A stretch of 64,000 nt of DNA from Dehalococcoidia bacterium. Its GTDB lineage: Bacteria; Chloroflexota; Dehalococcoidia; SM23-28-2; RBG-16-64-32. Every line of letters starts with the position of its first letter. Within the stretch, counting starts at the first letter, position 1. The notes below the pieces were generated by a model. That model was not told the origin of the DNA. It saw nothing but the letters and a program-made list of their open reading frames with translations, and did not search any database. Shown piece by piece: positions 11,206 through 41,803 of the stretch. The translations under genes and the position numbers were made by a program. The stretch covers positions 15,003 through 79,002 of the forward strand of contig JBBDNA010000009.1 of NCBI GenBank assembly GCA_040877915.1, in the 5' to 3' direction.

Positions 11206-11280
11206 CGCGCTTCTGGGACAGTTTACCAAGCAGCAGGAGCGGGGAGCGAGGCTGGACCGGTGTCGCCGGACACCGCCACG

Positions 11281-11310
11281 TTGACCGCGCCGAATGGCGA
11301 GGCTTAGAAT
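11281..11310 (+). promoter_or_regulatory. Candidate sigma70-type promoter of the sulfatase-FGE operon
   Basis: TTGACC (11281-86), an 18-nt spacer, then TAGAAT (11305-10), 66 nt upstream of ATG 11377. The perfect palindrome GGTGTC-GCCG-GACACC lies immediately upstream. Confidence 0.4.
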
Positions 11311-11376
11311 CGTCCTGCGTTCGAAATGCCCCGCCCCTCGGTTTCGGGCGCAATTTCCCCGCCTGGAGGAGCAGCC

Positions 11377-13677: not shown

Positions 13678-13686
13678 CGGCGCGCC

Positions 13687-14637
13687 ATGGATGAGCAGGC
13701 CGAACCGGAGGCGCCCTGCTGCGCCCCCTCCGGCGGCACCCGCAGCGAGGCGGCGCCGGCCACGCCAGGTCGCGGCGCCGGCTCGCCTCACGTGGACATG
13801 GTCCGCCTGCCCGGCGGCGAGTTCCTCATGGGGAACGACGACGGCCTCGCCTACCCCTCGGACGGCGAGGCGCCGGTCCACGCGGTTATAGTCGCGCCGT
13901 TCTGGATCGACCCAACGGCGGTGACCAACGCCCGCTTCTCGGCCTTCGTCGAGGCGACCGGCTACCAGACCGGCGCCGAGCGATTGGGCTGGACCTTCGT
14001 CTTCGCCGGGCTGCTCCCGGACGACTTTCCGGACACGCGCGGCGTGGCGGCGGCGCCCTGGTGGCGTCAGGTGCACGCCGCCGACTGGCGTCACCCGGAA
14101 GGGCCGCAATCGCTCGTCGCGGAGCGCATGGACCATCCCGTAGTGCACGTCTCCTGGCGCGACGCGTCCGCTTACTGCGCCTGGGCGGGCCTGCGCCTGC
14201 CCAGCGAGGCCGAGTGGGAGTACGCGGCGCGGGGCGGCCTGGTCCAGAAGCGCTACCCCTGGGGAGACGAGCTCTCGCCCGGCGGCCGGCACATGTGCAA
14301 CGTCTGGCAGGGGGAGTTCCCCCGCCAGAACACCCAGGACGACGGCTACTACGGCACAGCGCCGGCGCGCTCCTTCGATCCGAACGGGTTCGGGCTGTAC
14401 AACGTCAGCGGCAACGCCTGGGAGTGGTGCGCCGACTGGTTCAGCCCGACGTACTATCGAGAGTCGCCGGCCGGCGATCCTCGCGGCCCGTCTGGCGGTA
14501 CGGCCCGCGTGATCCGCGGCGGCTCCTACCTCTGCCACGACTCCTACTGCTTCCGTTACAGGGTCGCCGCTCGCAGCGCCAACACGCCGGACAGCTCCAC
14601 CGGCAACACTGGCTTCCGCTGCGCCCGCGACGCGTGA
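13687..14637 (+). CDS. formylglycine-generating enzyme (SUMF1/FGE family)
   Basis: Blocks HPVVHVSWRDASAYCAWAG, LPSEAEWEYAARGG and RVIRGGSYLCHDSYCFRYRVAARS, which carries the catalytic Cys pair. It lies directly downstream of the sulfatase. Confidence 0.9.
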   Translation: MDEQAEPEAPCCAPSGGTRSEAAPATPGRGAGSPHVDMVRLPGGEFLMGNDDGLAYPSDGEAPVHAVIVAPFWIDPTAVTNARFSAFVEATGYQTGAERLGWTFVFAGLLPDDFPDTRGVAAAPWWRQVHAADWRHPEGPQSLVAERMDHPVVHVSWRDASAYCAWAGLRLPSEAEWEYAARGGLVQKRYPWGDELSPGGRHMCNVWQGEFPRQNTQDDGYYGTAPARSFDPNGFGLYNVSGNAWEWCADWFSPTYYRESPAGDPRGPSGGTARVIRGGSYLCHDSYCFRYRVAARSANTPDSSTGNTGFRCARDA

Positions 14638-14755
14638 CCGCGACGATTTCCGGCGAACCGGCCTACGCGCTGGCGGATGCGGTACGGCTGCTCCATAATT
14701 AGTGGCCGAGATCAACGTTGCATCTAGCTGGACACGCATCCGGGAGGTATACGGC

Positions 14756-15574
14756 ATGGCGAAGCGGATTCTGGTTACGGGGGCGGCAACGGGCTTCGGG
14801 AGGGCGACGGCGCTGGCGCTGGCGAAGCGCGGGCACACAGTGATCGCGGGCGTACAGATCGCGCCGCAGATGACAGAGCTGATGAAGGCTGCCGCTGAGG
14901 CCGCTGTGCAGCTGAAAATCCAGGTGCTGGACATCACGGACGAGGGGGACCGGCAGGCGGCGTTGACCAACGAGGTAGACGTGCTGATCAACAACGCCGG
15001 CGTGATGGAGACGGGGCCGGTGGCCGAGATCCCGATGGAGAGGGTGCGCCGCAACTTCGAGACGAACGTGTTCGGGACGCTGGCGCTCACGCAGGCCTTC
15101 GCGCGGCAGATGGTGAAGCGAGGGTCCGGGAAGATCGTGATGGTGACGTCCATGGGCGGCCTGGTCACGGTGCCGTTCGCGGGCGTGTACTGCGCGACCA
15201 AGCACGCGCTGGAGGCACTGGCGGAAGGGTTGAAGGCGGAGCTTGCCGGTACCGGCGTGGAAGTGTGCACGGCGAACCCGGGCGTGTACGGCACGGGCTT
15301 CAACGATCGGGGAGCGGAAACGATGATGCGGTGGTTCGACATGGGGAATTCACTGACGCGGCCTGAGGTGCTCGCCGCGGCGGCGACGGGGCTGGCCAAC
15401 CAGCTCGACCCGCAGTCGATGGTCGATGCCTTCGTCCGGATCGCCGAGGAGGACGGGTCGAAGTTCCGGAACGTCGTGCCGGACGGGACGGCGGAGTGGA
15501 TCAAGGAGATCCAGGCGAAGACGTGGGCCGCCGGTAAGGACGATGCGATCTGGAGCTCGCCGCCGGCGGGTTAA
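14756..15574 (+). CDS. SDR family oxidoreductase
   Basis: TGAATGFGRATA (TGxxxGxG), NNAG and YCATK (YxxxK). A GGGAGG RBS precedes ATG 14756. Confidence 0.85.
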   Translation: MAKRILVTGAATGFGRATALALAKRGHTVIAGVQIAPQMTELMKAAAEAAVQLKIQVLDITDEGDRQAALTNEVDVLINNAGVMETGPVAEIPMERVRRNFETNVFGTLALTQAFARQMVKRGSGKIVMVTSMGGLVTVPFAGVYCATKHALEALAEGLKAELAGTGVEVCTANPGVYGTGFNDRGAETMMRWFDMGNSLTRPEVLAAAATGLANQLDPQSMVDAFVRIAEEDGSKFRNVVPDGTAEWIKEIQAKTWAAGKDDAIWSSPPAG

Positions 15575-20647: not shown

Positions 20648-21892
20648 ATGCTCCCTTCGACTTCGCTCAGGACAGGCCCTTCGACTTCGCTCAGGACAGG
20701 CCCTTCGACTTCGCTCAGGACAGGCATCGGCTGCGTTCACGTCCCACGCTTCGCCGTTGAGGTCGAGCGCCGGCGCCGCCCCGAACTCGCGTCGCGCCTG
20801 ATCCTCATCGGCGAGACCAGCGTGTTCGATTGCTCCCTGGGCGCCCAGGCCTCCGGCGTCCGGCCCGGCATGCGCGTATCGGAGGCGCTGGGCCTGTGCG
20901 GCAAGGCTGTGCTGTTCCCGCCCGATCTCCCCCGCTACCGCCGCCGTTTCGAAGATGTGCTGGACTTCCTGAACGGCCACAGTCCCCAGGTGGAAGGGGC
21001 AGCCCTGGGCACGGCCTACCTGTCGCTCGAAGGGCTGCCCGAAGAACCTTGCCGCCTCGGCGAGCGGGTCGTCGAGGCGCTGTATAAGCAGTTCGGCCTG
21101 CGCGGTTCCTTCGGCGCCGCCGGCGGCAAGTTCACCGCCCGCGTCCTGGCCGAAACCGCCCGCGCCGGCCTCGTCAAGCTCGTCCCGCCCGGCGAGGAGG
21201 CGGCGTTCCTCGCGCCCCTGCCCGTCGACCACCTGCCGGCCAGCGATTCGATGCTCTGGCGGCTGCGGATGCTGGGCCTGGAGACGATGGGCGACGTGGC
21301 GGCGCTGCCGGAGGGCGCGTTCCAGCAGCAGTTCGGGCCGGAGGGCAGGCGTTGCCGGCGGCTGGCGCAGGGCATCGACGACGAGCCGCTGCTGCCGCGG
21401 GCGCAGGAGGAGACGGTCGTACGACGGTTGCAGCTGCCGGCCCCGGCGGTGACACTGGACGCCGTCCTCGCCGGCGTCGAGCGGTTGGTCCATGCCGCCT
21501 ACGGCGACCCCCTTCGTGGCGGGCGCTGGGTGCGCAAGGCGGTGGTGAGGGCAGCGCTGTACGGTGGTGGGGCGTGGGAGCTGCCCGTCCCCTTCCGTGA
21601 GGCGCTGGCCGACCCCGGAGACGCCTGGTTCGCCGTGAGGTGCGCCGTGGAACGGCGTCCGCCGGAGCGCCCGCTGGAGGAGCTGGAGGTGGAGCTGGTG
21701 GGGCTGAGCGGGGAGTCCGGTCGCCAGGCTTCCATGTTCGATGGCCGGGCGAAGCTGAAGGCCCAGGTGACGGAAGCCGTGCGTCAGCTACAAGCCCAGC
21801 ACGGCGAAGTCGCGCTGGGGAGAGCGGTAGAGGTGGAGCCGTGGTCGCGCATACCGGAGCGCAGGATGGCTCTCGTCGACTACGGCCCCTGA
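20648..21892 (+). CDS. imuB: ImuB-like Y-family DNA polymerase homologue (mutasome component)
   Basis: After the repeat-encoded N-terminus the sequence IGCVHVPRFAVEVERRRRPEL... resembles ImuB/DinB-like N-termini, and the UmuC-like region follows. It lies upstream of dnaE2. Confidence 0.7.
   Translation: MLPSTSLRTGPSTSLRTGPSTSLRTGIGCVHVPRFAVEVERRRRPELASRLILIGETSVFDCSLGAQASGVRPGMRVSEALGLCGKAVLFPPDLPRYRRRFEDVLDFLNGHSPQVEGAALGTAYLSLEGLPEEPCRLGERVVEALYKQFGLRGSFGAAGGKFTARVLAETARAGLVKLVPPGEEAAFLAPLPVDHLPASDSMLWRLRMLGLETMGDVAALPEGAFQQQFGPEGRRCRRLAQGIDDEPLLPRAQEETVVRRLQLPAPAVTLDAVLAGVERLVHAAYGDPLRGGRWVRKAVVRAALYGGGAWELPVPFREALADPGDAWFAVRCAVERRPPERPLEELEVELVGLSGESGRQASMFDGRAKLKAQVTEAVRQLQAQHGEVALGRAVEVEPWSRIPERRMALVDYGP
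20653..20724 (+). repeat. perfect tandem repeat, 3 x 24 bp (CCCTTCGACTTCGCTCAGGACAGG), inside the 5' end of imuB
   Basis: The three units are identical on direct reading and are translated as PSTSLRTG x3. Confidence 0.95.
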
Positions 21893-22862: not shown

Positions 22863-25800
22863 ATGGTATCAACACCATACGCTGAACTGCACGCCCACTC
22901 CAACTTCTCGTTCCTCGAGGGGGCCTCCCACATCGAGGAGCTGGTGCTGCGGGCGCGCGAGCTGGGGTACGAGGCCCTCGCCCTCACGGACCACGACGGC
23001 CTGCATGGAGCGATGGAGTTCGCCCAGTGCGCCCGCGCCTGGGGGCTGCGGCCGATCACCGGCGCCGAGATCACGCTGGCGGGGAGCACGGAACAGGGGC
23101 CGAGCGCCCACCTCACCCTCCTCTGCGAGAGCCAGCGGGGCTACGCCAACCTCTGCCGTTTGCTGACCCACGCCCACCTGGACCATGAGCGCGGCCACCC
23201 CTGCGTGGAGCCGGAGGCGCTGGCCCGCCATGCCGAAGGGCTGATCGCGCTGTCCGGCTGCCGGCGCGGCCAGGTGCCGTCGCTGGTGGCCCGCGGCCTG
23301 TACGGCGAGGCGGAGGCGGCGGCCCGGCGCTACATCGCGCTGTTCGGTCGCGAGAACTTCTTCGTCGAGCTGCAGAACAACCTCGTCCACGGCGACGTGT
23401 CCCGCAATCGCGCTCTGGCCGACCTGGCGGAGCACCTGGGCGTCGGCGCCGTCGCCACCGGCAACGTCCACTACCACGCGCGGGAGCGGCATCGCCTGCA
23501 GGACGTACTGGTCGCCATCAAGAACCGGTCGACACTGGACGCCTCGCACCGCGTCCGGCGTGAGAACTCGGAGTACTACCTGCGCTCGCCGGAAGAGGCG
23601 GCGGCCGCGTTCGCCGATCACCCGGACGCCGTCGCGAACGCCCTCCGCGTCGCCGAGCGCTGCCAATTCGACCTGACCCGCGACTTGGACTACCGTTTTC
23701 CGGACTACCCTGTGCCGGAGGGCGAGACGCAGGAGTCGTACCTGCGCGCGCTCTGCCAGCGGGAGGCGGAGCTGAAGTACCGCCGCGTCACCCCGGAGAT
23801 ACAGGAGCGGCTGGAGAAGGAGCTGTCGCTGGTGGAGCGGCATGGGCTGGCCGGGTTCTTCCTGATCCACCAGGAGATCTTCCAGCTGGCGCGGCAGGTC
23901 GCGGAGGAGGTGCGGGGCCGGCCGCCCAAGGGGCCGCCGGGCCGCGGCCGCGGCTCGTCCGTAGGGTCGCTCATCTGCTACCTCATCGGGCTGTCGCACA
24001 TCGATCCCGTGGCCAACAACCTGTTCCTGGGCCGCTTCCTCAACGAGGAGATGGCCTCCGTCCCCGACATCGACCTCGACTTCCCCCGCGACGTCCGCGA
24101 GAAGCTAATCCTGCGCGTCTACGAGCACTTCGGGCGGGAGCACGTGGGGCTCGTCGCCATCTTCCCGACGTACCGCATCCGCAGCGCCGTGCGGGAGGTG
24201 GGCAAGGCGCTGGGGTTGCCGCCCGCCGAGCTGGACCGGCTGGCCGAGGCCAGCGAGGGTGGCTCCGCGAAGTCGATTCGTGAGGAGATGGGGCGGCTGG
24301 AGCACTTCCGCGATAGGCTGGGCGCCGGCGGCTGGCGTCACCTGGCCGAGCTGTCGGAGGAGATCGCCGGCTTCCCCCGACACATCTCGCAGCACGTCGG
24401 CGGCATGGTCATATCGTCGAAGCCGCTGGTGGAGCTCGTCCCCCTGGAGCAGTCCGCCATGGAGGGTCGCGTCCTCATGCAGTGGGACAAGGACTCCGTG
24501 GACGACGCCCGCATGATCAAGATCGACTTCCTGGCGCTGGGCATGCTCTCGGCCGTCGATGAGACGCTGGACCTCGTCGAGCGGCGGCACGGAAAGCGTG
24601 TCGACCTCTCGCGCATCGACTTCAAGGATGACCGCGTGTACGACTCGATCTGCGCCGCCGACACGATGGGCGTGTTCCAGATCGAGTCGCGGGCCCAGAT
24701 GCAGACGCTGCCGCGGACGCGGCCGCGCTCGCTGGAGGATCTGACGGTGGAGGTGGCGATCATCCGTCCGGGGCCGATCGTGGGCGGAGCGGTCAACCCT
24801 TACATCAACCGCCGCCTGGGCCGCGAGAAGGTGACCTACGACCACCCCTCGCTGGAGCCGGTGCTGGCCGAGACGCTGGGGGTGGTGCTGTTCCAGGAGC
24901 AGGTGCTGCAGGTGGCGATGGCGCTGGCCGGGTTCAGCGCCGGCCAGGCCGAGAGCCTGCGACGGGCGATGAGCCGCAAACGCTCGCGGGAGGCGATCGA
25001 CAAGCTGCGGGACGAGTTCCTGGGGGGCTGCCAGCGCAACGGCGTATCGAGAAAGGTGGCGGAGAGCGCGTTCGGGAAGATAGCCGGGTTCGCGGAGTTC
25101 GGCTTCCCCAAGGCACACGCCGCCGCCTTCGGCCTGCTGGCCTACCAGACGGCCTGGCTGCGCCTGTACTACCCGGCGGAGTCACTGTGCGCGCTGTTCA
25201 ACGCCCAGCCCATGGGGTTCTACGGCCCGCACGTCCTGGTGAACGACGGCAGGCGTCGCGGGGTGGAGGCGCTGCCGCCGGACATCAACCTCAGCGGCGC
25301 GGATTGCAGCGTGGAGCCCTCGCCCGAGGATGACGATCGTAGGGACAGGTCTGAAGACCTGTCCTCGGACAGACCTGAAGGTCTGTCCCTACGTCTTGAC
25401 GTACGCGTCCCCGCCCCGGCGGGCGACCATGTAGGGGCGACCTTCAGGTCGCCCGATGACGAGGCGATCCCCTCCTCGGCGGGCGGTCTAAAGACCGCCC
25501 CTACAACGTTGCCCTCTGACCTCGCCGTGCGTGTCGGCCTGCGCTACGTGAAGACGCTGAGCGAGACGTCGGCGCGAGAGGTGGAGGCAGAGCGTTCGCG
25601 AGGGCCCTACCGCTCACTGTTCGATTTCCTGGAGCGGACGCGGCTCAAGCGAGAGCCCATCGAAAACCTGATCGCCTGCGGGGCCTTCGACTGCTTCGGG
25701 CTGGAGCGCCGGGAGCTGCTGTGGCAGCTCGGCCTGCTATACCGTCCGGAGGGGCGCAACGGCGTCGACCGTCAGCTGGCGCTGCCGTTGCCCACGCAGC

Positions 25801-26252
25801 AGGACATGGTAACGCTGGCCCCGATGACAGGCTGGGACCGCATGATCGCCGACTACGCCGTCCTTGGCCTCTCCCCCGGCCAGCACCCGATGTCATTCCT
25901 GCGGCCACGGCTGCACGAGGGGATCGTGGCCAGCCGAATGCTGGATTCGGTGCCGGACGGGGCGGCGGTGGAGGTGGCGGGGCTGGTGGTGTGCCGGCAG
26001 CGTCCGGGCACGGCCAAGGGGTTCGTGTTCCTGGTGCTGGAGGACGAGTTCGGGCTGGTGAACCTTGTCGTCAAGCCCGCCCTGCACGAGCGGCAGCGCT
26101 CGCTGGTGCGGGGGGAGCCGTTCGTGATCGTGCGCGGGAAGCTGCAACGCCGCGACGGCACGCTGAACGTGATAGCGGAGGGCTTCACCCCCCTGCGCGC
26201 TGCGGGAGCGCCCGCGCCGGAGGCGCACAACTTCGGTCACGGGCACAGGTAA
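22863..26252 (+). CDS. dnaE2: error-prone DNA polymerase III alpha-like subunit DnaE2
   Basis: PHP domain (YAELHAHSNFSFLEGAS, LALTDHDGLHG), pol III alpha core blocks and a C-terminal OB fold (GLVVCRQRPGTAKGFVFLVLEDEFG). It lies downstream of imuB. Confidence 0.9.
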   Translation: MVSTPYAELHAHSNFSFLEGASHIEELVLRARELGYEALALTDHDGLHGAMEFAQCARAWGLRPITGAEITLAGSTEQGPSAHLTLLCESQRGYANLCRLLTHAHLDHERGHPCVEPEALARHAEGLIALSGCRRGQVPSLVARGLYGEAEAAARRYIALFGRENFFVELQNNLVHGDVSRNRALADLAEHLGVGAVATGNVHYHARERHRLQDVLVAIKNRSTLDASHRVRRENSEYYLRSPEEAAAAFADHPDAVANALRVAERCQFDLTRDLDYRFPDYPVPEGETQESYLRALCQREAELKYRRVTPEIQERLEKELSLVERHGLAGFFLIHQEIFQLARQVAEEVRGRPPKGPPGRGRGSSVGSLICYLIGLSHIDPVANNLFLGRFLNEEMASVPDIDLDFPRDVREKLILRVYEHFGREHVGLVAIFPTYRIRSAVREVGKALGLPPAELDRLAEASEGGSAKSIREEMGRLEHFRDRLGAGGWRHLAELSEEIAGFPRHISQHVGGMVISSKPLVELVPLEQSAMEGRVLMQWDKDSVDDARMIKIDFLALGMLSAVDETLDLVERRHGKRVDLSRIDFKDDRVYDSICAADTMGVFQIESRAQMQTLPRTRPRSLEDLTVEVAIIRPGPIVGGAVNPYINRRLGREKVTYDHPSLEPVLAETLGVVLFQEQVLQVAMALAGFSAGQAESLRRAMSRKRSREAIDKLRDEFLGGCQRNGVSRKVAESAFGKIAGFAEFGFPKAHAAAFGLLAYQTAWLRLYYPAESLCALFNAQPMGFYGPHVLVNDGRRRGVEALPPDINLSGADCSVEPSPEDDDRRDRSEDLSSDRPEGLSLRLDVRVPAPAGDHVGATFRSPDDEAIPSSAGGLKTAPTTLPSDLAVRVGLRYVKTLSETSAREVEAERSRGPYRSLFDFLERTRLKREPIENLIACGAFDCFGLERRELLWQLGLLYRPEGRNGVDRQLALPLPTQQDMVTLAPMTGWDRMIADYAVLGLSPGQHPMSFLRPRLHEGIVASRMLDSVPDGAAVEVAGLVVCRQRPGTAKGFVFLVLEDEFGLVNLVVKPALHERQRSLVRGEPFVIVRGKLQRRDGTLNVIAEGFTPLRAAGAPAPEAHNFGHGHR
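25338..25504. repeat. cluster of four perfect GC-rich hairpins (two GTAGGG...CCCTAC-bounded composite units), in frame inside dnaE2
   Basis: The four hairpins are GGACAGGTC-TGAA-GACCTGTCC, GGACAGACC-TGAA-GGTCTGTCC (unit 25338-25393), GGGCGACC-TTCA-GGTCGCCC (25434-25453) and GGGCGGTC-TAAA-GACCGCCC (25481-25500). Confidence 0.85.
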
Positions 26253-35367: not shown

Positions 35368-35529
35368 CGTCGCCTTACCGCGCCCTCGGTTAACAGGGCT
35401 ACTCCCACGGACCGCGTTCACCACGCGTCGAAGGTGTACGTGAGTGGGGACGTTCGCACGTACTTCGCGGGTCGTTCTTCTCGCTCCTGAAGCGCGGCAT
35501 CTGATGCGGCTTCTGCTCAGGCGCGCGAT

Positions 35530-36361
35530 GGTCGGGGACCGGCAGATCTCGACGATCCTGAGCGAGGAGACCGACCCGAATAAGCTCCACGACATGAAGG
35601 CAGACCTCGACGGATATCAGGTGTACTCGGCCGACCAGGTGGATCAACTAGTGGAGCTCTATCTTGGTGGGTCGGAGCGGGACCGACTCGATCCCATCCT
35701 TGACGCGTCTGTCGCGACCTACGTGGACGAACTCGACGAGGATGGGCAGGTGGACTTCAAGGGCAAGGCCAAGGCGGTTGTTCGAACCTACGGCTTCTTG
35801 GCCTCTATCCTTCCCTACTCAAAGGCGGAGTGGGAGAAACTCGCCGTCTTCTTGAACTTCCTGATTCCGAAGCTCCCCGCCCCGAAAGAGGAAGACTTCG
35901 CCAAGGGCGTCCTCGAAGCCATCGGCCTGGAGAGTTACCGCAGTGAAGTGCGCCTCGCCATGAGCATCGCGCTGGAGGACGAGGAGTCCGAGATCGGGCC
36001 GGTGCCTGTCGGAGGTGGGGGCCAAGGAGCCGAGCCCGAGTTTGACCTGCTCAGCAACATCGTGAAGTCGTTCAACGAGCAGTTCGGCACTATCGAATGG
36101 AAGGACGTGGACAAGGTCCAACAGGTCATCGCGAAGGAGATTCCCGCGAAGGTGTCGGCTGACAGGGCCTACAGAAACGCCATCAAGAACTCGGACAAAC
36201 AGAATGCCCGGATCGAACACGACCTCGCGCTCGAACGTGTCCTCGTCGCTCTCCTGACAGATCACACGGAACTCTACAAGCAGTTCAGTGACAATCCGTC
36301 TTTCAAGAAGTGGCTGCAGGAGATGATCTTCGCCGCTACGTACGAACCGGCGGAGGCTTAG
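35530..36361 (+). pseudogene. hsdR: type I restriction enzyme R-subunit (HsdR) C-terminal remnant
   Basis: ILSEETDPNKLHDMKADLDGYQVYSADQVDQLVELY...FKGKAKAVVRTYGFLASILPYSKAEWEKLAVFLNFLIPKLP...NPSFKKWLQEMIF matches the helical C-terminal region of HsdR. The nuclease and helicase domains, hsdM and hsdS are absent. GC is lower than in the flanks. Confidence 0.6.
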
Positions 36362-36504: not shown

Positions 36505-38946
36505 ATGGAGCCGCGCATCCAGTTCGCGAAGACGAGGGACGGCGTCAACATCGCCTTTTGGACAGCGGGGGAAGGCATGCCGTTTGTGGGCCTGCCCGCG
36601 CTCCCGTTCGCCACCAGCGAAGAGTGGCGCCTCCCCGAGCATCGCGGGTGGTACGCGCGCGTGGCCGAGAAGCGAAAGATCGTCCTGTACGATGGCAGGG
36701 GCACCGGGCTCTCCCAGCGCGACGTAAAGGACTTCTCGCTCGACGCTCAGATACTGGACCTGGAGGCCGTCGTTGACCACCTGGGGCTGGTGACTTTCGC
36801 GCTGGCCGCTCCGGCCATGGTCGGCCCGGTGGGCATCGCTTACGCGGGCAGCCGGCCGGAACGCTTGTCGCACCTTCTCTTATGGTGCGCCTGGGCGCGG
36901 GCCGCTGATGTGATGGGATCGCCGCAGTTTCAGGCCATGCTCTCGCTAAAGGATCAGGACTGGGAGATATTCACGGAGACGGCGGCGCACGTCCTCCTGG
37001 GGTGGTCAGCGGGTGAACGGGCACGCCAGGCGGCGGCCGCCTACCGGGAAAGCGTGGGAGAGGATACAGCGCGGGCGATCCTAGACGCGATGTTGCAGTT
37101 CGACGCCACAGGCTACCTTCCGCAGATCACATCGCCAACGCTGGTATGTCACCGGCGCCAGTTGGTTTTCCCAGCGCGCGACATCGCGACCGGCCTGGTC
37201 TCCAAAATACCGAACGCCCGGCTGGTCCTGCTAGACGGCGCGACGCTGCTGCCCTATGAGGGCGACGTGGAAGCTGCGGCGCGGGCCATCGACGAATTCC
37301 TGGGCGAAGGAGCAGCCGCATCGGCGGCAACAGTGCAGCCGCCTGCCGGCATGGCCGTCATCATGTTCGCCGACATAGTGGACTCCACAGAGCTGACGGA
37401 GCGGATGGGCGACGCCGCGTTCCGGGAAAAGGCGCGTGATCTGGATGGGGCGCTGCGAGCCGCGATCCGCGAGCGTGAGGGCGCGCCGGTGGAGGGGAAG
37501 CTGCTGGGCGATGGCGTACTGGCTGTGTTCAGCTCGGCGCGCCAGGCGATCGAGGCGGCGCTAAGGTGTGGGGAGGCGGGCGAGGTGAAGGGCCTGCCGC
37601 TGCACCTCGGCGTGCACGCCGGCGACGTAATCCGCGAGGAGCAGAACGTGTACGGCGGGGCGGTGAACATCGCCGCTCGGATATCCGCAGCCTCGGAACC
37701 GGGGGAGGTGCTGGTATCGGAGACCGTGCGGGGGCTGGCTCGAACCTCGGCGGACGTAGCGTTCGAGGACAGGGGCGAGCACGAGCTGAAGGGCGTCGCA
37801 GATCCGCTGCGGCTCTTCGCGGTGCAGCGAGGAGATGTCCACGAGGCTCGACGACCCAGCGACGCTCTCCCAGAGGCGCCGGCTACTGGCGGCTTGGATG
37901 AGCCGCCCATCCAGTACGCCGAGACGGCGGACGGAGTGAGAATAGCTTTCAGCGTCATCGGCGACGGGAGACCGATCGTCTTCATGCCTCAGTACCCCTG
38001 GAGTCACATCCAGAAGGACTGGGAGATGCCGGCCTTCCGCGGCTTCTGGACCGGCGCGGCACGAACGATGCGGGTCATCAGATACGATGCCAGAGGGACG
38101 GGTCTGTCGGATCGTGGCGTCGACGATCTTGCTCCTCAGGCGCACCTGCGAGATCTCCACGCTGTCGTCCAGAGCCTGGGCCTACAAAGCTTCGCCCTTA
38201 GCGGTGCGACCAGCGCCGGGCCATTAGCGATCGAGTATGCCGGGCGGCACCCTGACCGAGTCTCGCACTTGGTCCTGTGGTGTACATCCGCCAGAACAAG
38301 CGATATCTATCCGGCTGGGTCCGAGGCGCTGGACCAGATGGCGCTGACTGACTGGCATTTCTTCACCGAGGCGATCGCGCACTCGGCGTTCAGCTGGCTG
38401 CACGGCGAAGAAGCGAAGCAGATGGCGGAGTTCCTGCGTTCCTGTATCGCGCCGGGCACTTTGGTCGCAAGCATGCCTGCCTTCCGTAAGCACGACGCTA
38501 CGCCGTACCTCTCCAGCATTGCAGCGCGAACGCTCGTGATGACTCGGCGAGAGACACCGTACCTCGGTGTGGACGTGGCGCGCAGGCTCGCCTCTCAGAT
38601 ACGCGGCGCGCGGCTCGTAGTCGTGGAGGGGTCCTCCATAGCACCGGTAGGAAACGAGGCCGCCGTGCTGGACGTGGTGAGCGAGTTCGTTGGGGAGGAT
38701 GGCCAGGAGCCCGCCGGCAGAGAGGTCGCAGACCGGCCGATCAGCCTGACCGCTCGTGAGACCGAGGTGTTGAGCTTGCTCTCGAGCGGCTGCTCGGGTA
38801 AGGAGATCGCGGCACAACTGACGGTCAGCCTCTCCACGGTGCAGCGGCACATCGCCAACATCTACGCCAAGATCGGCGCCCGCGGCAGGGTGGAGGCTGC
38901 GGCTTACGCCATAAGGCACGGGCTCGTGCCGCCTCGCGACGCCTAG
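36505..38946 (+). CDS. multidomain regulator: alpha/beta-hydrolase fold, class III adenylate/guanylate cyclase domain, second alpha/beta-hydrolase fold, LuxR-type HTH
   Basis: Cyclase blocks VIMFADIVDSTE, EGKLLGDGVLAVF and GGAVNIAARIS. C-terminal LTARETEVLSLLSSGCSGKEIAAQLTVSLSTVQRHIANIYAKIG. The two ABH-like regions have degenerate nucleophile elbows (AAPAMVG, GATSAG). Confidence 0.8.
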   Translation: MEPRIQFAKTRDGVNIAFWTAGEGMPFVGLPALPFATSEEWRLPEHRGWYARVAEKRKIVLYDGRGTGLSQRDVKDFSLDAQILDLEAVVDHLGLVTFALAAPAMVGPVGIAYAGSRPERLSHLLLWCAWARAADVMGSPQFQAMLSLKDQDWEIFTETAAHVLLGWSAGERARQAAAAYRESVGEDTARAILDAMLQFDATGYLPQITSPTLVCHRRQLVFPARDIATGLVSKIPNARLVLLDGATLLPYEGDVEAAARAIDEFLGEGAAASAATVQPPAGMAVIMFADIVDSTELTERMGDAAFREKARDLDGALRAAIREREGAPVEGKLLGDGVLAVFSSARQAIEAALRCGEAGEVKGLPLHLGVHAGDVIREEQNVYGGAVNIAARISAASEPGEVLVSETVRGLARTSADVAFEDRGEHELKGVADPLRLFAVQRGDVHEARRPSDALPEAPATGGLDEPPIQYAETADGVRIAFSVIGDGRPIVFMPQYPWSHIQKDWEMPAFRGFWTGAARTMRVIRYDARGTGLSDRGVDDLAPQAHLRDLHAVVQSLGLQSFALSGATSAGPLAIEYAGRHPDRVSHLVLWCTSARTSDIYPAGSEALDQMALTDWHFFTEAIAHSAFSWLHGEEAKQMAEFLRSCIAPGTLVASMPAFRKHDATPYLSSIAARTLVMTRRETPYLGVDVARRLASQIRGARLVVVEGSSIAPVGNEAAVLDVVSEFVGEDGQEPAGREVADRPISLTARETEVLSLLSSGCSGKEIAAQLTVSLSTVQRHIANIYAKIGARGRVEAAAYAIRHGLVPPRDA
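38800..38929 (+). repeat. direct repeat copy 1 (LuxR-HTH coding 3' end), near-identical to 40468-40597
   Basis: A 95-nt perfect match (38800-38894 = 40468-40562) is followed by 35 nt with 3 mismatches. The rest of the two genes is far more divergent. Confidence 0.9.
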
Positions 38947-38991
38947 GACTTACGTGATTGGCCCACGCGCCGTGAGATAATGTGACGTCTG

Positions 38992-40614
38992 ATGGAGCGC
39001 GAAGTCCGCTACTGCACGACCGAGGACGGTGTCCGCATCGCCTACTGCGTGGAAGGCGACGGGCCGCCGCTGGTGATGATCGCCTTCTTCATTGAGTCGT
39101 TCTCTCTCGACCACCTGCTGCCCGAGAGTCAGCAGTTCTTCCGGCGCCTGGGACAAGGTCGCCGGCTAGTTCGTTTTGACGCCCGCGGCACCGGCTTGTC
39201 GCAGCGAGACGTCGCCGATATGTCCACCGCTGCCCTCGTGCGCGACCTCGAGGCCGTCGTACGAGCGGCGGGCCTCAAACGCTTCTCCCTCTTTGTCGGC
39301 TCGGCGGGCGGTCCACGGGCCATCGAGTACGCGGCCCGACATCCCGGCCAGATGGACCGCCTGATCCTCCTCAGGACGTTTGCCCGGCTGCTGGACGTCC
39401 TCTCGCGGGATATGTTGGAGGGCTTGATACGGCTGGCGAGAGCCAATTGGGCGGTCGCTGCCCGCACCTTCGCCGATATGACCGCCAATGCGGCCAACCG
39501 CACGGAGTTTGTAGAGCCTATCTCGGCGTGGGCAGAATTGTGGAGGCAATCGTCCACCGGCGACGAGGCGGCCCGGCTCCTCGAGCAGCACATCGAAGTA
39601 GACGTGACCGCTCTGCTGCCCCGGGTGAAAGCCCCCACCCTTGTCATCTCTTATCCTGACGACGTTTTCTTTCCCGTGGCCCTGGGTCAACAACTGGCCG
39701 CCGCCATCCCCAACGCTCGCTTCCTCCCATTGCAGGGCAGGGTAGGGATTATAGGGTTTCCGGAGCCCGAACGCGCGCTCGACGCTGTCGACGCCTTCTT
39801 GAGGGAGGAAGGGCCGGCGCCGAATCCCCAGCGGGCCGACACCATCGCCGGCCGCAACGTTCTCACCGTCCTCTTCACTGACATCGTGGGGCACACGGAG
39901 ATGATGCAGCGCCTGGGCGATGAACGCGGGCGGGACGTGTTGCGCGAGCACGAGCGGATCACGCGCGAGGTGCTGAAGGCGCACGGCGGGACGGAAGTGA
40001 AGACGATGGGGGACGGGTTCATGGCCTCGTTTGGGAGCGTCACGCGGGCGGTGGAGTGCGCCGTGACATTGCAGAAGGCGTTCGAGGAGTGGAATGCGGG
40101 CGTAGGGGCGCAGCATGCTGCGCCCCTACGCGTGCGCGTCGGCCTCAGCGCCGGGGAGCCGATTGAGGAGGAGGGAGACCTGTTTGGGGCGACGGTGATA
40201 CTGGCGTCGCGGATCGCCGCGACGGCGGCGGGCGGCGAGATACTGGTGGCGAACGCCGTGCGGGAGTTGTGTGCGGGAAAGGATTTCGTGTTCGTGGATC
40301 GAGGAACAGAGGCGCTCAAGGGGTTCGACGAGCCGGTGCGGCTGTATGAGGTCGCGTGGTCAGAGGACAAGGTCGTCGCGCCGCCCAGCGCGGGGACTGG
40401 GCCAAGTGCGGCACTGACCACACGCGAGACAGAGGTCCTGGGCCTGTTGGCGGGCGGCCGGAGCGGCAAGGAGATCGCGGCACAACTGACGGTCAGCCTC
40501 TCCACGGTGCAGCGGCACATCGCCAACATCTACGCCAAGATCGGCGCCCGCGGCAGGGTGGAAGCGGCGGCGTACGCCATAAGGCACGGGCTCGTGCAAC
40601 CTCCCGGCGAATAG
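38992..40614 (+). CDS. multidomain regulator: alpha/beta-hydrolase fold, class III cyclase-like domain, LuxR-type HTH (paralogue of the preceding gene)
   Basis: Cyclase blocks TVLFTDIVGHTE, EVKTMGDGFMASF and GATVILASRIA, where the transition-state Asn is replaced by Ile. The LuxR HTH is identical to that of the upstream gene. The ABH elbow is GSAGG. Confidence 0.8.
   Translation: MEREVRYCTTEDGVRIAYCVEGDGPPLVMIAFFIESFSLDHLLPESQQFFRRLGQGRRLVRFDARGTGLSQRDVADMSTAALVRDLEAVVRAAGLKRFSLFVGSAGGPRAIEYAARHPGQMDRLILLRTFARLLDVLSRDMLEGLIRLARANWAVAARTFADMTANAANRTEFVEPISAWAELWRQSSTGDEAARLLEQHIEVDVTALLPRVKAPTLVISYPDDVFFPVALGQQLAAAIPNARFLPLQGRVGIIGFPEPERALDAVDAFLREEGPAPNPQRADTIAGRNVLTVLFTDIVGHTEMMQRLGDERGRDVLREHERITREVLKAHGGTEVKTMGDGFMASFGSVTRAVECAVTLQKAFEEWNAGVGAQHAAPLRVRVGLSAGEPIEEEGDLFGATVILASRIAATAAGGEILVANAVRELCAGKDFVFVDRGTEALKGFDEPVRLYEVAWSEDKVVAPPSAGTGPSAALTTRETEVLGLLAGGRSGKEIAAQLTVSLSTVQRHIANIYAKIGARGRVEAAAYAIRHGLVQPPGE
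40468..40597 (+). repeat. direct repeat copy 2 (LuxR-HTH coding 3' end)
   Basis: See copy 1 (38800-38929). Confidence 0.9.
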
Positions 40615-40752
40615 GCGTCTACACACTTCGTGTCGTCCCTGATCTGCGGCAGGCGATTCTTTTCGTTCGTTTCTGGTTCGTTTTGAGGATGGCGGCCGCG
40701 CTCGCCGCCCATTACCCTCAGATTGACGGATTTTCTGGAAGGGAGTAAGACC

Positions 40753-41403
40753 ATGAAGCCGAGGATACTAATTCTGGCAGGACTGCTCGCCGTCGTCGCG
40801 CTGGCGGGCGTAGTCTACCTGGAGCTGCGGGGCGATTCCGCCGCGGAGGCCGGCGAACAGAAGGCAAAGGTGGTCCTGCACAACGCCGCCGGCAGCCGTG
40901 TGGGCCACGTCAAGTTTGCGCAGGACGGCGGCCTCGTCGACGTGAAGGTCGTCATCGACGCTCCCCTGACGAGCCTGGCTGCGGGGTTCCATGGATTCCA
41001 CGTCCACGCTACCGGCAGCTGCGTGGCCGATGCCAGCCAGGCTGAAACCACCTGGTTCACGTCCGCCGGCGGGCACTTCAAGGACGCTGATCCCGCCCAC
41101 GCCCACCACGGCGCTCACAACGGTGACCTTCCGGTTATTCTGGTCACTGATAACGGCAGTGGTCGCGGCACCGCCGAGGCCCGCTTCAGCACCGACAGCT
41201 TCACCGTTGAGGACGTCGCCGGCCGGGGCCTCATCGTTCACAAGCTACCGGACAACTACCGCAACATCCCGCTGGGCAGCGGCGCCACCCAGTACCAGCC
41301 GGTGACCGACGATGTGAACAGCAGCGCGACGGCGACGGGACTCACGGCTGCGACGGGTAACGCCGGTCCCAGGCTCGCTTGCGGCGTCATCCAGCAGCAC
41401 TAA
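40753..41403 (+). CDS. sodC: Cu/Zn superoxide dismutase (periplasmic/secreted)
   Basis: Signal peptide MKPRILILAGLLAVVALAG, then HGFHVHATGSC, GGHF, HHGAHNGDLP and C-terminal RLACGVI. A GGGAG RBS precedes ATG 40753. Confidence 0.85.
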   Translation: MKPRILILAGLLAVVALAGVVYLELRGDSAAEAGEQKAKVVLHNAAGSRVGHVKFAQDGGLVDVKVVIDAPLTSLAAGFHGFHVHATGSCVADASQAETTWFTSAGGHFKDADPAHAHHGAHNGDLPVILVTDNGSGRGTAEARFSTDSFTVEDVAGRGLIVHKLPDNYRNIPLGSGATQYQPVTDDVNSSATATGLTAATGNAGPRLACGVIQQH

Positions 41404-41434: not shown

Positions 41435-41803
41435 ATGAACGCAGAAGTATTGCACAGAGTAATGTCGACGTTCACTGGCCTTCTCGGGCTGGTCTACGTT
41501 CTAGGCAGCCTCGGGTTCGCGCTCGATGGAGGCGATGACTTTTCGTCGGCGACGGAAAGAGTCTTCTTTGGCGCACTCGGCACCTTGTTGGGCCTGTCCA
41601 TGCTCGCGGGTGCACTCGTTTCCGCGCGCAGGCCGTGGCTTGGCGTCGCCTTGATAGCAGTCGGGGCGATCCCTGTGGCGTTTGTCCTTTACTGGATGCT
41701 CGTGATAACGCTTCCCGTCACTGCGGTGATCGTCGGTTACGCTCTCTTCTGGGCCCTGCGCTTCCGCGGCGCCCAGAGCGTTCGCGGGTCCGTGGTAGGC
41801 TGA
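41435..41803 (+). CDS. hypothetical membrane protein (4 predicted TM)
   Basis: 122-aa hydrophobic ORF immediately downstream of sodC. No recognisable motif. Confidence 0.45.
   Translation: MNAEVLHRVMSTFTGLLGLVYVLGSLGFALDGGDDFSSATERVFFGALGTLLGLSMLAGALVSARRPWLGVALIAVGAIPVAFVLYWMLVITLPVTAVIVGYALFWALRFRGAQSVRGSVVG

Follow-up and report, generated by a model that had tools for sequence, protein, structure and literature searches.

Tandem P1 and P2 proteins with alpha/beta-hydrolase, cyclase and LuxR domains: members, in a soil Chloroflexota-type genome, of an uncharacterised, recombining regulator family

Gene and domain organisation

The window, by which we mean the whole stretch of 64,000 nucleotides that was analysed, carries two adjacent genes, P1 and P2, whose products combine alpha/beta-hydrolase (ABH) domains, a class III cyclase (CYC) domain and a LuxR/GerE helix-turn-helix (HTH) domain. 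The open reading frames, lengths and domain orders of the original prediction are real, as judged from the ORF list and, for the domains, from Pfam.

36505..38946, plus strand: P1 gene, 813 aa; ABH1 - class III cyclase - ABH2 - LuxR/GerE HTH
38947..38991, plus strand: P1-P2 spacer, 45 bp; about 85% conserved with the related locus L005
38992..40614, plus strand: P2 gene, 540 aa; ABH - class III cyclase - LuxR/GerE HTH

The 45-bp spacer was scanned and yielded no promoter or terminator consensus, and we infer that P1 and P2 are co-transcribed. Pfam matches were counted only above gathering scores, and on this basis the assignments to Guanylate_cyc, Abhydrolase and GerE were upheld. In P1, Abhydrolase_1 matched in two stretches, Guanylate_cyc at residues 284-432 (38.7 bits against a cut-off of 21.9) and GerE at residues 747-802 (59.1 bits, E 3.4e-16), while the matches in P2 were to Abhydrolase_1 at residues 51-244, Guanylate_cyc at residues 291-447 (75.9 bits) and GerE at residues 474-529 (E 4.3e-16). 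Boundaries from family-specific HMMs are ABH 1-271, CYC 282-442, ABH 465-734 and HTH 745-808 for P1, and ABH 1-275, CYC 289-456 and HTH 472-535 for P2. Each domain folds confidently in the AlphaFold2 models (mean pLDDT 86.6 for P1 and 89.0 for P2), with four folded domains in P1 and disordered interdomain linkers in both proteins. Full-length homologues of P1 with the same architecture include P0122 (71%), P0123 (64%) and P0124 (59%), and the P2 orthologue P0002 shows 84% identity.

Alpha/beta-hydrolase domains

36505..37317, plus strand: P1 ABH1 (aa 1-271), by alignment to P2, anchored on PDB nucleophile mapping
37897..38706, plus strand: P1 ABH2 (aa 465-734), second apparent pseudo-hydrolase, by alignment and domain HMM
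38992..39816, plus strand: P2 ABH (aa 1-275), by residue alignments to 8qzu, 8v16/6eb3 and 3e3a

All three nucleophile elbows had been described as degenerate. This holds for P1, where the nucleophile position is occupied by Ala in ABH1, in which neither the acid nor the His is conserved, and by Thr in ABH2, which also lacks the His. It does not hold fully for P2, whose elbow reads V-G-S-A-G, because Ser104 falls precisely on the nucleophile in alignments with solved hydrolases, opposite position 98 of XhpG (8qzu, an S98A mutant) and the GVSMGG Ser of Est1. P2 also retains the acid, Asp223, and its catalytic His is missing. Among 240 homologues the nucleophile column contains T, L, G, S, A or V, and His is present in the His column of only 40. 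Given a nucleophile that is unconserved on this scale, and a catalytic His missing from all three domains of P1 and P2, the ABH domains look like non-catalytic pseudo-hydrolases, as was originally proposed, and they probably serve as sensor domains.

The reading in which P1 and P2 are bifunctional lipase/esterase-cyclases of the LipJ kind, with a true hydrolase and a DNA-binding tail, draws on the Ser104 and Asp223 of P2, on a review that counts LipJ among characterised esterases (PMC10865251) and on the end-to-end match of both proteins to NCBIfam NF058673, 'bifunctional lipase/adenylate cyclase LipJ' (model positions 8-448 of 449). However, the scores of 258 and 205 bits fall far under the equivalog cut-off of 800 and, with the His lost from every ABH domain, Ala at the nucleophile position of P1 ABH1 and a nucleophile column that is unconserved family-wide, we regard this reading as very improbable.

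The ABH domain is the fastest-evolving module, and ABH1 is the fastest-evolving domain of P1 (51-58% identity to orthologues). Foldseek places the P2 ABH close to the PcaD-type enol-lactonase 2xua, 3om8, RsbQ and DWARF14 (TM 0.8-0.86), and some family members give weak Ndr matches. P1 ABH2 starts at a gene-start-like motif (PPIQYAETADGVRIAF); its nearest relatives are the ABH2 domains of P0122-P0124 (86-63%), followed by the ABH1 domains of the P1 clade (41-47%), and the L005 orthologue lacks it. In the favoured reading, an internal duplication in the P1 clade gave rise to the extra domain.

Cyclase domains

37348..37830, plus strand: P1 cyclase homology domain (aa 282-442), D-K-D-N-N-R; Rv1900c 1ybt E 9e-21, Ma1120 alignment
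39856..40359, plus strand: P2 cyclase homology domain (aa 289-456), D-K-D-D-I-R; Ma1120 E 1e-29, Rv1900c E 3e-24

Key residues, extracted with hmmalign, are given in the order metal Asp, Lys, metal Asp, substrate Asp, transition-state Asn and Arg. Those quoted earlier (metal Asp, Lys, N/I and R) were correct; absent from that account was the Asn that replaces the second substrate-specifying Asp in P1, which makes the substrate of the P1 cyclase uncertain. The P2 pattern is the commonest, occurring in 101 of about 160 cyclase domains in the fetched loci. Essentially all complete cyclase domains of these loci retain the metal Asp pair, Lys and Arg, and every ABH-linked HTH member reads D-K-D-[DN]-[INQ]-R. 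The P2 cyclase and its L005 orthologue share 93% identity. By Foldseek, the P2 domain matches Ma1120 and Rv1900c with a target-normalised TM of 0.92 and an rmsd of 1.1-1.5 Å. From their residues, both cyclases are apparently active.

The Ile in place of the transition-state Asn of P2 had been considered an asymmetry of the heterodimeric type. It does not constitute such evidence because it is clade-wide and is matched by non-Asn residues in active enzymes, namely His in Rv1900c (PMC4886424) and Ala in Ma1120, an active adenylyl cyclase in which restoration of the Asn drastically reduced activity (PMC4215837).

LuxR domains and gene conversion

38737..38928, plus strand: P1 LuxR/GerE HTH (aa 745-808), Pfam GerE E 3.4e-16
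38797..38928, plus strand: gene-converted tract, P1 copy, 44 codons
40405..40596, plus strand: P2 LuxR/GerE HTH (aa 472-535), Pfam GerE E 4.3e-16
40465..40596, plus strand: gene-converted tract, P2 copy, by nucleotide comparison with P1

The P1 and P2 copies of the HTH tract differ at 4 of 132 nt, and differences from the L005 HTH copies amount to 13-22 of 132 nt. By this comparison, gene conversion keeps the HTH-coding parts of the two genes alike. In the L001/L003 array, one HTH is common to all the paralogues and to an adjoining AAA_16-TPR-LuxR gene.

Family distribution and module shuffling

The ABH-cyclase-LuxR architecture is less unusual than was supposed: it recurs, frequently in tandem arrays, in protein clusters of which about 16 are full-length and about 35 fragments, with Chloroflexota-labelled MAGs and metagenomes as the main sources. 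No characterised fusion of this kind was found in the literature searched, which gave only the mycobacterial CHD-AAA-LuxR 'Mclx' proteins, and this agrees with the original prediction. Of that prediction as a whole, the domains and the non-catalytic ABH stand, whereas the heterodimer mark and the unusual architecture are not supported.

The fetched loci contain 113 ABH-CYC ORFs. Variant orders are ABH-HTH (derived from a P0010-like gene by deletion of the cyclase), ABH-ABH-CYC-HTH, and ABH-CYC-ABH-CYC, found as natural fusions in L063, P0125 and P0129. The CYC-LuxR cassette is also placed after FHA or SCO4226-like domains. In the SCO4226-like-CHD-GerE proteins (about 350 aa) all six cyclase key residues are replaced, the fold-level match and the HTH are kept, and the cyclase appears from these replacements to be catalytically dead. 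The cyclase is perhaps dispensable for HTH output, being absent from ABH-HTH and devoid of its key residues in the SCO4226-like proteins. P1 and P2 belong to an uncharacterised family of recombining regulators, and their host genome is of a soil Chloroflexota type.

The arrangement of genes in arrays bears on whether the two proteins act only as an asymmetric heterodimeric cyclase of the mammalian C1/C2 kind, in which one site is competent and the other degenerate. The genes adjoin across the 45-bp spacer and their cyclases come from different clades (N-N-R and D-I-R); N-N-R genes precede D-I-R genes in the seven mixed arrays, the ABH-CYC-ABH-CYC fusions occur naturally, and identical HTHs would suit a palindromic site. 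Nevertheless, there is no complementary degeneration since P1 and P2 each retain both metal Asp residues, Lys and Arg, and a non-Asn residue also occurs in active Ma1120 and Rv1900c. Moreover, D-I-R-only arrays are in the majority, L085 has a P1-type gene without a P2-type partner, the P2 orthologue of L005 is paired with a different cyclase clade (D-Q-R), and L161 is a single-gene locus with a chimeric gene. We therefore consider an obligate heterodimer unlikely.

sodC and its neighbourhood

40619..40634, plus strand: block 1 upstream of sodC (CTACACACTTCGTGTC), containing ACAC-TTC-GTGT
40677..40693, plus strand: block 2 upstream of sodC (TTCGTTTTGAGGATGGC), conserved in six loci
40753..41403, plus strand: sodC (Cu/Zn superoxide dismutase), Pfam Sod_Cu E 7e-26, NCBIfam SodC
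41435..41803, plus strand: ORF for a 122-aa hydrophobic protein after sodC

Family regulators lie directly upstream of sodC in five loci (the window, L005, L085, L086 and L161), with a gene set that varies among them, and the sodC start at ATG 40753 aligns across loci. The 122-aa protein gave no Pfam match; in L085 sodC is followed by a gene of comparable length (about 121 aa), and L161 has a closely similar sequence one ORF beyond sodC. Block 1, which we infer to be a candidate operator, has at most one mismatch in the five loci and three in L138. Block 2 is exact in five loci, with one mismatch in L086, and gave no Rfam match. Each block is single-copy in the window and their spacing is fixed at 57-58 nt. 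Neither was found upstream of the regulator genes, and the sodC upstream region showed neither a strong inverted repeat nor a sigma-70 consensus. Because both blocks are present in L138, which has no adjacent family regulator, they may be just the sodC promoter or 5' UTR. The association of regulators with sodC is also inflated by the shared ancestry of the five syntenic loci, and the link is weaker than it looks. sodC, with the following hydrophobic ORF, is the most likely target of P1 and P2.

The genomic context is one of chromosomal housekeeping (TypA, sodC and an imuB-dnaE2 pair). This argues against a defence cyclase, whether anti-phage cyclic-pyrimidine (Pycsar-like) or of another kind, as does the absence of a recognisable effector among the Pfam-annotated neighbours. 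The PADLOC matches that favour a defence role are weak PycC matches (P2 E 2.8e-7) reflecting the generic class III fold; P1, P2 and the upstream ORF matched only weak PycC and HTH-level models, and the nearest relatives are mycobacterial adenylyl cyclases. Such a role can be given scarcely any weight.

Proposed mode of action

On balance, we lean towards P1 and P2 being cytoplasmic one-component regulators with cyclic-nucleotide and transcriptional outputs, with sodC as the most likely target. Three kinds of module would be joined by flexible linkers. The N-terminal ABH, having lost hydrolysis, would provide the input as a sensor of a ligand or partner. The cyclase, of the Rv1900c/Ma1120 type, is expected to dimerise head to tail and, given its conserved residues, should still produce a cyclic nucleotide, most likely cAMP; the dimer would also pair the C-terminal LuxR/GerE HTHs into a DNA-binding dimer. 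These steps would give the signal both a diffusible cyclic nucleotide and direct control of transcription as outputs. P1 carries an extra pseudo-hydrolase between cyclase and HTH and, since gene conversion has kept their recognition domains near identical, P1 and P2 should read the same operator in response to different inputs. Each probably functions as a homodimer; mixed dimers may form and would not be required.

A less probable but appreciable alternative is that P1 and P2 are only transcription factors, in which the cyclase domain is a dimerisation or ATP-binding transducer and synthesis is absent or irrelevant. HTH output outlives cyclase loss in the ABH-HTH derivatives, the SCO4226-like-CHD-GerE proteins keep fold and HTH with every key residue replaced, and an allosteric ATP/cAMP-binding role has been proposed for Mclx2 and Mclx3 (PMC4452763). 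Against this, the metal Asp, Lys and Arg residues are kept in every ABH-linked HTH member examined, which would be surprising if neither catalysis nor nucleotide/metal binding were under selection, and the P2 cyclase is strongly conserved relative to L005. Regulators with both outputs are thus preferred.

Comparison with known systems

Rv1900c/LipJ of Mycobacterium tuberculosis (ABH - class IIIc cyclase; 1ybt, 1ybu) has the same order of N-terminal ABH and cyclase; its cyclase aligns at E 1e-20 to 1e-24 with a target-normalised TM of 0.92 and has a non-canonical His where Asn would be expected. It differs by the presence of Asn, not Lys, in the first substrate position and by the lack of a DNA-binding domain, whereas P1 and P2 add the LuxR HTH, and P1 a second ABH, and both score far under the LipJ equivalog cut-off. 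Among solved structures, Ma1120 of Mycobacterium avium (4wp3, 4wp8, 4wp9) matches the P2 cyclase best and shares its active-site pattern K...D...non-Asn...R. Where P2 has Ile in the Asn position Ma1120 has Ala, and the A164N substitution there is harmful (PMC4215837). The solved constructs of Ma1120 consist of the cyclase domain alone, without ABH or HTH.

The Mclx proteins Rv0386, Rv1358 and Rv2488c (CHD - AAA/NB-ARC - TPR - LuxR) likewise unite a class III CHD and a C-terminal LuxR domain in one polypeptide, and have been discussed as cyclases or as nucleotide-modulated regulators (PMC3466318, PMC4452763). In contrast to P1 and P2, they lack an ABH, their cyclase is N-terminal and a large STAND ATPase/TPR region precedes the HTH; Pfam reported no AAA or NB-ARC in P1 or P2 at E <= 0.1. 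Mclx proteins have been described as almost confined to mycobacteria, whereas the P1/P2 family occurs mostly in Chloroflexota-labelled MAGs.

RsbQ (1wom) and DWARF14 (9jqg), structural neighbours of the P2 ABH at a TM of about 0.8, also employ the ABH fold as a signal input upstream of a signalling output, although they keep the full Ser-His-Asp triad and are separate proteins, unfused to a cyclase or HTH. GID1 and the Ndr family are further examples of non-catalytic or receptor alpha/beta-hydrolases.

Gene and domain organisation of the tandem regulators

The two genes encoding P1 and P2 lie on the same strand, separated by a 45 bp spacer, exactly where the original prediction had placed them. 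Its domain assignments were also borne out by Pfam, with all families above their curated cut-offs in both proteins (21.9 bits for Guanylate_cyc, PF00211, and 23.5 bits for GerE, PF00196). The alpha/beta-hydrolase-fold domain is abbreviated here as ABH, the class III cyclase homology domain as CYC or CHD, and the LuxR/GerE helix-turn-helix as HTH.

Domain boundaries in residues, from HMMs built for the family, and Pfam matches
36505-38946, P1, 813 aa: ABH 1-271, CYC 282-442, ABH 465-734, HTH 745-808; Pfam Abhydrolase_1 in two stretches, Guanylate_cyc 284-432 (38.7 bits), GerE 747-802 (59.1 bits)
38992-40614, P2, 540 aa: ABH 1-275, CYC 289-456, HTH 472-535; Pfam Abhydrolase_1, Guanylate_cyc 291-447 (75.9 bits), GerE 474-529 (58.7 bits)

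AlphaFold2 models generated from family alignments folded each domain confidently, with mean pLDDT values of 89.0 for P2 and 86.6 for P1, and the C-terminal HTHs of both were modelled as four-helix bundles. Disordered linkers were predicted between the domains (residues 277-287 and 461-471 in P2; 269-281, 445-463 and 734-743 in P1) and these, together with low pTM values of 0.58 for P2 and 0.48 for P1, suggest that the domains behave as beads on a string. The possibility that P1 was an artefact of assembly or frameshifting was ruled out because its four-domain order is retained, at 59-71% identity, in three independent clusters; the model in which all four domains fold also counters that reading.

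The ABH domains as pseudo-hydrolases

With Abhydrolase_1 above cut-off in P1 and P2, the ABH fold is present in both. Foldseek comparisons placed the P2 domain nearest to PcaD-type enol-lactonases, small esterases and haloperoxidases, with RsbQ and DWARF14 also among its structural neighbours (TM about 0.8-0.86). In alignments to solved hydrolases, Ser104 of P2, within the elbow V-G-S-A-G, occupies the nucleophile position (residue 98 of the XhpG S98A mutant 8qzu and the Ser of GVSMGG in Est1) and Asp223 the acid position, and there is no His at the catalytic His position. For P1, in the register of the P1/P2 alignment, the first domain (ABH1) has Ala for the nucleophile and lacks both acid and His, and the second (ABH2) has Thr for the nucleophile and lacks His. 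All three elbows had been described as degenerate, and this description holds to the extent that a complete nucleophile-acid-His triad is absent from each of the three domains, except that the P2 elbow keeps an aligned nucleophile in Ser104. Setting the retained Ser and Asp of P2 against the incomplete triads, a true lipase is very improbable.

Among 240 homologues the residues in the nucleophile column are distributed as T43/L37/G28/S24/A23/V22, and His occurs in the His column of only 40. Judged from these alignment columns, incomplete triads are a trait of the whole family. Moreover, ABH is the fastest-evolving module: P1 shares 51-58% identity with its orthologues in ABH1, 72-78% in the cyclase and 72-92% in the HTH, and for P2 and its orthologue the values are 80% for the ABH and 93% for the cyclase. 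This pattern would fit a diversifying, non-catalytic input domain.

Cyclase residues and the question of pairing

The six key residues of the cyclase domains (metal Asp, Lys, metal Asp, substrate Asp, transition-state Asn and Arg, in that order) are D-K-D-N-N-R in P1 and D-K-D-D-I-R in P2. Relative to the canonical Lys/Asp substrate pair and Asn/Arg transition-state pair, each protein is one position off, P2 having K/D and I/R and P1 having K/N and N/R. The metal Asp pair, present in both, is found in 235 of the 240 homologues; in the cyclase domains of the fetched related loci (designated by L-numbers), almost no exceptions occur to it or to the Lys and Arg. These domains fall into clades according to the positions that do vary, named by their last three residues: D-I-R (101), N-N-R (22), D-Q-R (8) and D-N-R (6). 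Since D-I-R is the commonest, the Ile of P2 represents the majority state of the family and not a private defect. Of the solved mycobacterial cyclases, Ma1120 carries Ala at the transition-state Asn position and is an active adenylyl cyclase in which the A164N "repair" drastically cut activity (PMC4215837), and Rv1900c, likewise an active relative, carries His at that position (PMC4886424). Both the clade-wide residue profile and these precedents speak against the earlier suggestion that Ile in place of Asn reflects a heterodimer asymmetry.

Complementary loss of catalytic residues, which marks C1/C2-like heterodimers, is absent, with P1 and P2 both retaining the metal Asps, Lys and Arg. In addition, the partners differ between loci. 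A P1-type gene stands alone ahead of sodC in L085; the P2 orthologue of L005 has as its partner a gene carrying a P1-like ABH (54%) and a P2-like cyclase of the D-Q-R clade (53-56%); the second gene of L086 encodes an ABH-HTH protein with no cyclase; and L161 has a single regulator. An obligate P1:P2 heterodimer is therefore unsupported and we judge it improbable. Facultative mixed P1/P2 dimers are a possibility, since N-N-R genes lie upstream of D-I-R genes in all seven mixed arrays (L001, L025, L039, L063, L081, L082 and the window) and natural ABH-CYC-ABH-CYC fusions occur. This gene order could result from shared ancestry or reflect a functional order.

Distribution of the architecture

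ABH-cyclase proteins of the LipJ type, about 450 aa in length, are very abundant in metagenomes and in MAGs labelled Chloroflexota or Dehalococcoidia, with more than 4,800 matches at E <= 1e-10 among the candidates. Among the stretches matched in a scan of GTDB species representatives, 415 relatives were confirmed, many genomes having several loci, and, as HTH-less ABH-cyclase genes dominate there, this number is no census of the HTH fusion. Tandem arrays extend to six genes. A row of one ABH-CYC and five ABH-CYC-HTH genes occupies positions 491-9587 of L001/L006 (VBEJ01000075.1, from the Chloroflexi MAG CF_23). No further paralogues were found in the 64-kb window.

HTH-bearing versions are much rarer than ABH-cyclase proteins but they are recurrent. 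Sixteen full-length HTH-bearing clusters occur among the best 240 matches and four of these combine two ABH domains with cyclase and HTH, either in the order of P1 (P0122, P0123 and P0124) or as ABH-ABH-CYC-HTH (P0220). About 35 more clusters are fragments with cyclase and GerE; the third homologue search yielded gene fragments for the most part. Given this recurrence, the architecture is less unusual than was originally supposed.

Modular evolution and homogenisation of the HTH

Over the 44 codons of the HTH core, P1 and P2 differ at 4 of 132 nucleotides, all synonymous. The same core differs from either HTH of L005 at 13-22 of the 132 nucleotides and, outside the core, P1 and P2 are about 34-37% identical. 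These differences indicate that the P1/P2 HTH core is homogenised by gene conversion.

The modules of this family are put together like parts from a kit. In the L005 orthologue of P1, the P1-like ABH is followed by a P2-like cyclase, and there is no ABH2. In P1 itself, ABH2 begins with a gene-start-like motif and its nearest relatives are the ABH2 domains of P0122-P0124 (86-63%), followed by the ABH1 domains of the P1 clade (41-47%), which marks it as an internal duplication that is now conserved. The split arrangement at L007 raised the idea that P1 arose when an ABH-CYC gene fused to a separate ABH-HTH gene, and this was rejected because P1 ABH2 groups with the P1-clade ABHs and the stand-alone ABH-HTH proteins group with the ABH of P0010. 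The latter proteins (L086 and L007) share 69-75% ABH identity with P0010, whose order is ABH-CYC-HTH, and are thus derivatives from which the cyclase has been deleted.

Two further arrangements were observed. In L161 (reverse orientation; ORF 3-1367 after flipping) one chimeric regulator precedes sodC, with an N-terminal part resembling gene 1 of L005 and a C-terminal HTH resembling gene 2, and it looks like a tandem pair collapsed by unequal crossover. In L003 (5086-8016), a STAND-type AAA_16-TPR-LuxR gene of 976 aa follows the L001/L006 array and its HTH differs very little from those encoded in the array, so that one DNA-binding cassette is mounted on different sensor chassis.

When 1.84 billion representative proteins were searched exhaustively with the C-terminal 170 residues of P2, the contiguous cyclase-HTH cassette was found to follow other inputs as well, of the FHA and SCO4226-like kinds. 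P0367 is an FHA-cyclase-LuxR protein with intact key residues (D-K-D-D-D-R). Proteins of about 350 aa in which the cassette follows an SCO4226-like domain (nickel-responsive protein, PF14026) form about ten representative clusters (P0382, P0384, P0392, P0398, P0401, P0405, P0416, P0443, P0469 and P0479), the N-terminal PF14026 being confirmed by Pfam in seven. Their six cyclase key residues are all replaced, for example by E-Q-R-Q-E-T, and the cyclase region, for which Pfam gave no match, is recognised by the family HMM at E 1e-28 to 1e-43; it looks like a pseudo-cyclase serving as a transducer. Several very long representatives (P0361, of 7703 aa, P0362, P0363, P0364, P0366 and P0368) contain 9-22 separate GerE-like stretches and could be repeat proteins or mis-predicted genes.

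The main alternative for P1 and P2 is that the cyclase domain acts solely as a dimerising or ATP-binding transducer, and the dead-cyclase SCO4226-like proteins and the ABH-HTH derivatives demonstrate that such an arrangement can exist in the wider family. However, the catalytic residues are strictly kept in every ABH-linked member, and we consider this alternative rather unlikely.

The sodC link and genomic context

One neighbour of the regulators is conserved, a gene for Cu/Zn superoxide dismutase (sodC) directly downstream of P2.

Features downstream of P2
40619-40634: block 1, CTACAyACTTCGTGTC, conserved, upstream of sodC
40677-40693: block 2, TTCGTTTTGAGGATGGC, conserved, upstream of sodC
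40753-41403: sodC
after sodC: hydrophobic ORF of 122 aa

A sodC gene also follows HTH-bearing regulators in L005, L085, L086 and L161, although these loci have different regulator sets and unrelated upstream contexts. Mechanical ORF calling begins sodC at TTG 40723; the start that lines up in four loci is ATG 40753 (MKPRILIL...). Blocks 1 and 2, each unique within the window, have a fixed spacing of 57-58 nt in six loci, and block 2 lies at a variable 45 to 75 nt from the ATG. The blocks matched no Rfam family, consensus sigma-70 promoter or terminator, and nothing convincing in the way of a known RNA element, promoter, terminator or inverted repeat was found around P1/P2 or upstream of sodC. 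Upstream of P1, the related loci show no sequence conservation.

By phylogenetic footprint, positions 40619-40693 constitute a candidate HTH-binding region. A metagenome scan with the 17-mer of block 2 gave at least 120 matches, nearly all due to chance, and L138 and L161 were the only true sodC loci among the matches listed. L138, a metagenomic contig, carries sodC with block 2 intact and block 1 diverged and has no adjacent regulator, which weakens the inference of an operator; the blocks may instead be the promoter or leader of sodC itself, whichever regulator acts. The ORF upstream of sodC in L138 shows, by eye, a SAM-methyltransferase-like motif.

The window is ordinary chromosome, with TypA encoded upstream of P1 and, elsewhere, an imuB-dnaE2 pair, a P450 gene and ABC transporter genes. 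A defence cyclase of the Pycsar kind is extremely improbable in this setting because the PycC matches are weak (E 3e-7, PADLOC) and there is no recognisable effector among the Pfam-annotated neighbours. Other features of the window were observed as follows.

8491-15504 (-): ORF of 2337 aa with Pfam matches confined to residues ~1458-2333 (GNAT, CoA-binding, Succ_CoA_lig and ATP-grasp_5), of the Pat / ADP-forming acyl-CoA synthetase type; the first ~1450 aa are unmatched and may be an over-extended frame in high-GC DNA
20648-21892 and 22863-26252 (+): ImuB-like (IMS family) gene followed by a DnaE2-like error-prone polymerase gene, a mutagenesis cassette
35444-36361 (+): ORF of 305 aa between typA and P1, without hits to Pfam, NCBIfam, PADLOC or PDB sequences

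Proposed mode of action and significance

Domain content and conservation lead us to a scheme that we consider somewhat probable. The pseudo-hydrolase ABH would provide the input; the cyclase would dimerise, as class III cyclases must, and make cAMP or a related nucleotide; and this dimer would hold a pair of LuxR HTHs in position to bind DNA. Different inputs would then reach one shared operator through P1 and P2, with sodC as a target. More speculatively, and with little likelihood in our estimation, the cyclase-LuxR cassette might be a general self-contained nucleotide-gated transcription switch, in which ATP binding or turnover at the interface of the cyclase dimer sets the geometry of the HTH dimer. 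Arrays of paralogues with gene-converted, identical HTHs would then form mixed dimers and integrate many pseudo-hydrolase-sensed signals at one promoter, here that of sodC, while emitting cAMP.

The pairing of cyclase and LuxR domains is poorly understood in mycobacteria, and the present results suggest that a simpler, direct cassette exists in environmental bacteria, mostly in MAGs labelled Chloroflexota. Inputs are swapped within this cassette family (pseudo-hydrolase, FHA and SCO4226-like) and its cyclases are both intact and dead, providing a natural series that bears on whether a cyclase domain can serve as a transducer in transcription factors. P2, at 540 aa, is a smaller subject than Rv0386 for studying the coupling of cyclic-nucleotide synthesis and DNA binding. 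The evolutionary pattern appears to be one of diversifying sensor domains and a DNA-binding domain held constant by gene conversion, and the link to Cu/Zn superoxide dismutase supplies a concrete candidate regulatory target.

Relation to known proteins

P1 and P2 match nearly the whole of the LipJ/Rv1900c model (NCBIfam NF058673), end to end, with 257.6 and 204.9 bits, respectively, far below the equivalog cut-off of 800 bits. End-to-end alignment with scores under the cut-off identifies them as homologues of the same architecture and not as LipJ orthologues. The nearest solved cyclase domains are those of M. avium Ma1120 (E 1e-29 to P2) and M. tuberculosis Rv1900c (E 3e-24 to P2 and 9e-21 to P1), and the P2 model superimposes on both with a target-normalised TM of 0.92 and an rmsd of 1.1-1.5 A.

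The mycobacterial Mclx proteins Rv0386, Rv1358 and Rv2488c, with the cyclase at the N-terminus and an ATPase in the centre, have been discussed either as cyclases or as nucleotide-modulated regulators (PMC3466318, PMC4452763) and have been called nearly exclusive to mycobacteria (PMC4452763). Whereas in these Rv0386-type proteins the N-terminal CHD is followed by AAA/NB-ARC(-TPR) and then LuxR, the CHD of P1 and P2 is internal. Between it and the HTH, P2 has a linker of about 15 aa and P1 an ABH domain, in place of the intervening ATPase region of Mclx, and Pfam reported no AAA, NB-ARC or TPR family in either protein.

As anticipated, no characterised ABH-cyclase-HTH fusion was found in the literature searched, where the sole cyclase and LuxR proteins discussed are Mclx; the exact ABH-CYC-HTH architecture is already present in public databases under generic names only. 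The kind of system is not new, in that the pairings ABH-cyclase (Rv1900c) and cyclase-LuxR (Rv0386) were already known. Relative to the literature searched, what appears to be new is the occurrence outside mycobacteria of a direct cyclase-LuxR cassette whose inputs can be interchanged, pseudo-hydrolase sensors throughout the family, tandem arrays with HTHs apparently held identical by gene conversion, and a conserved link to sodC.
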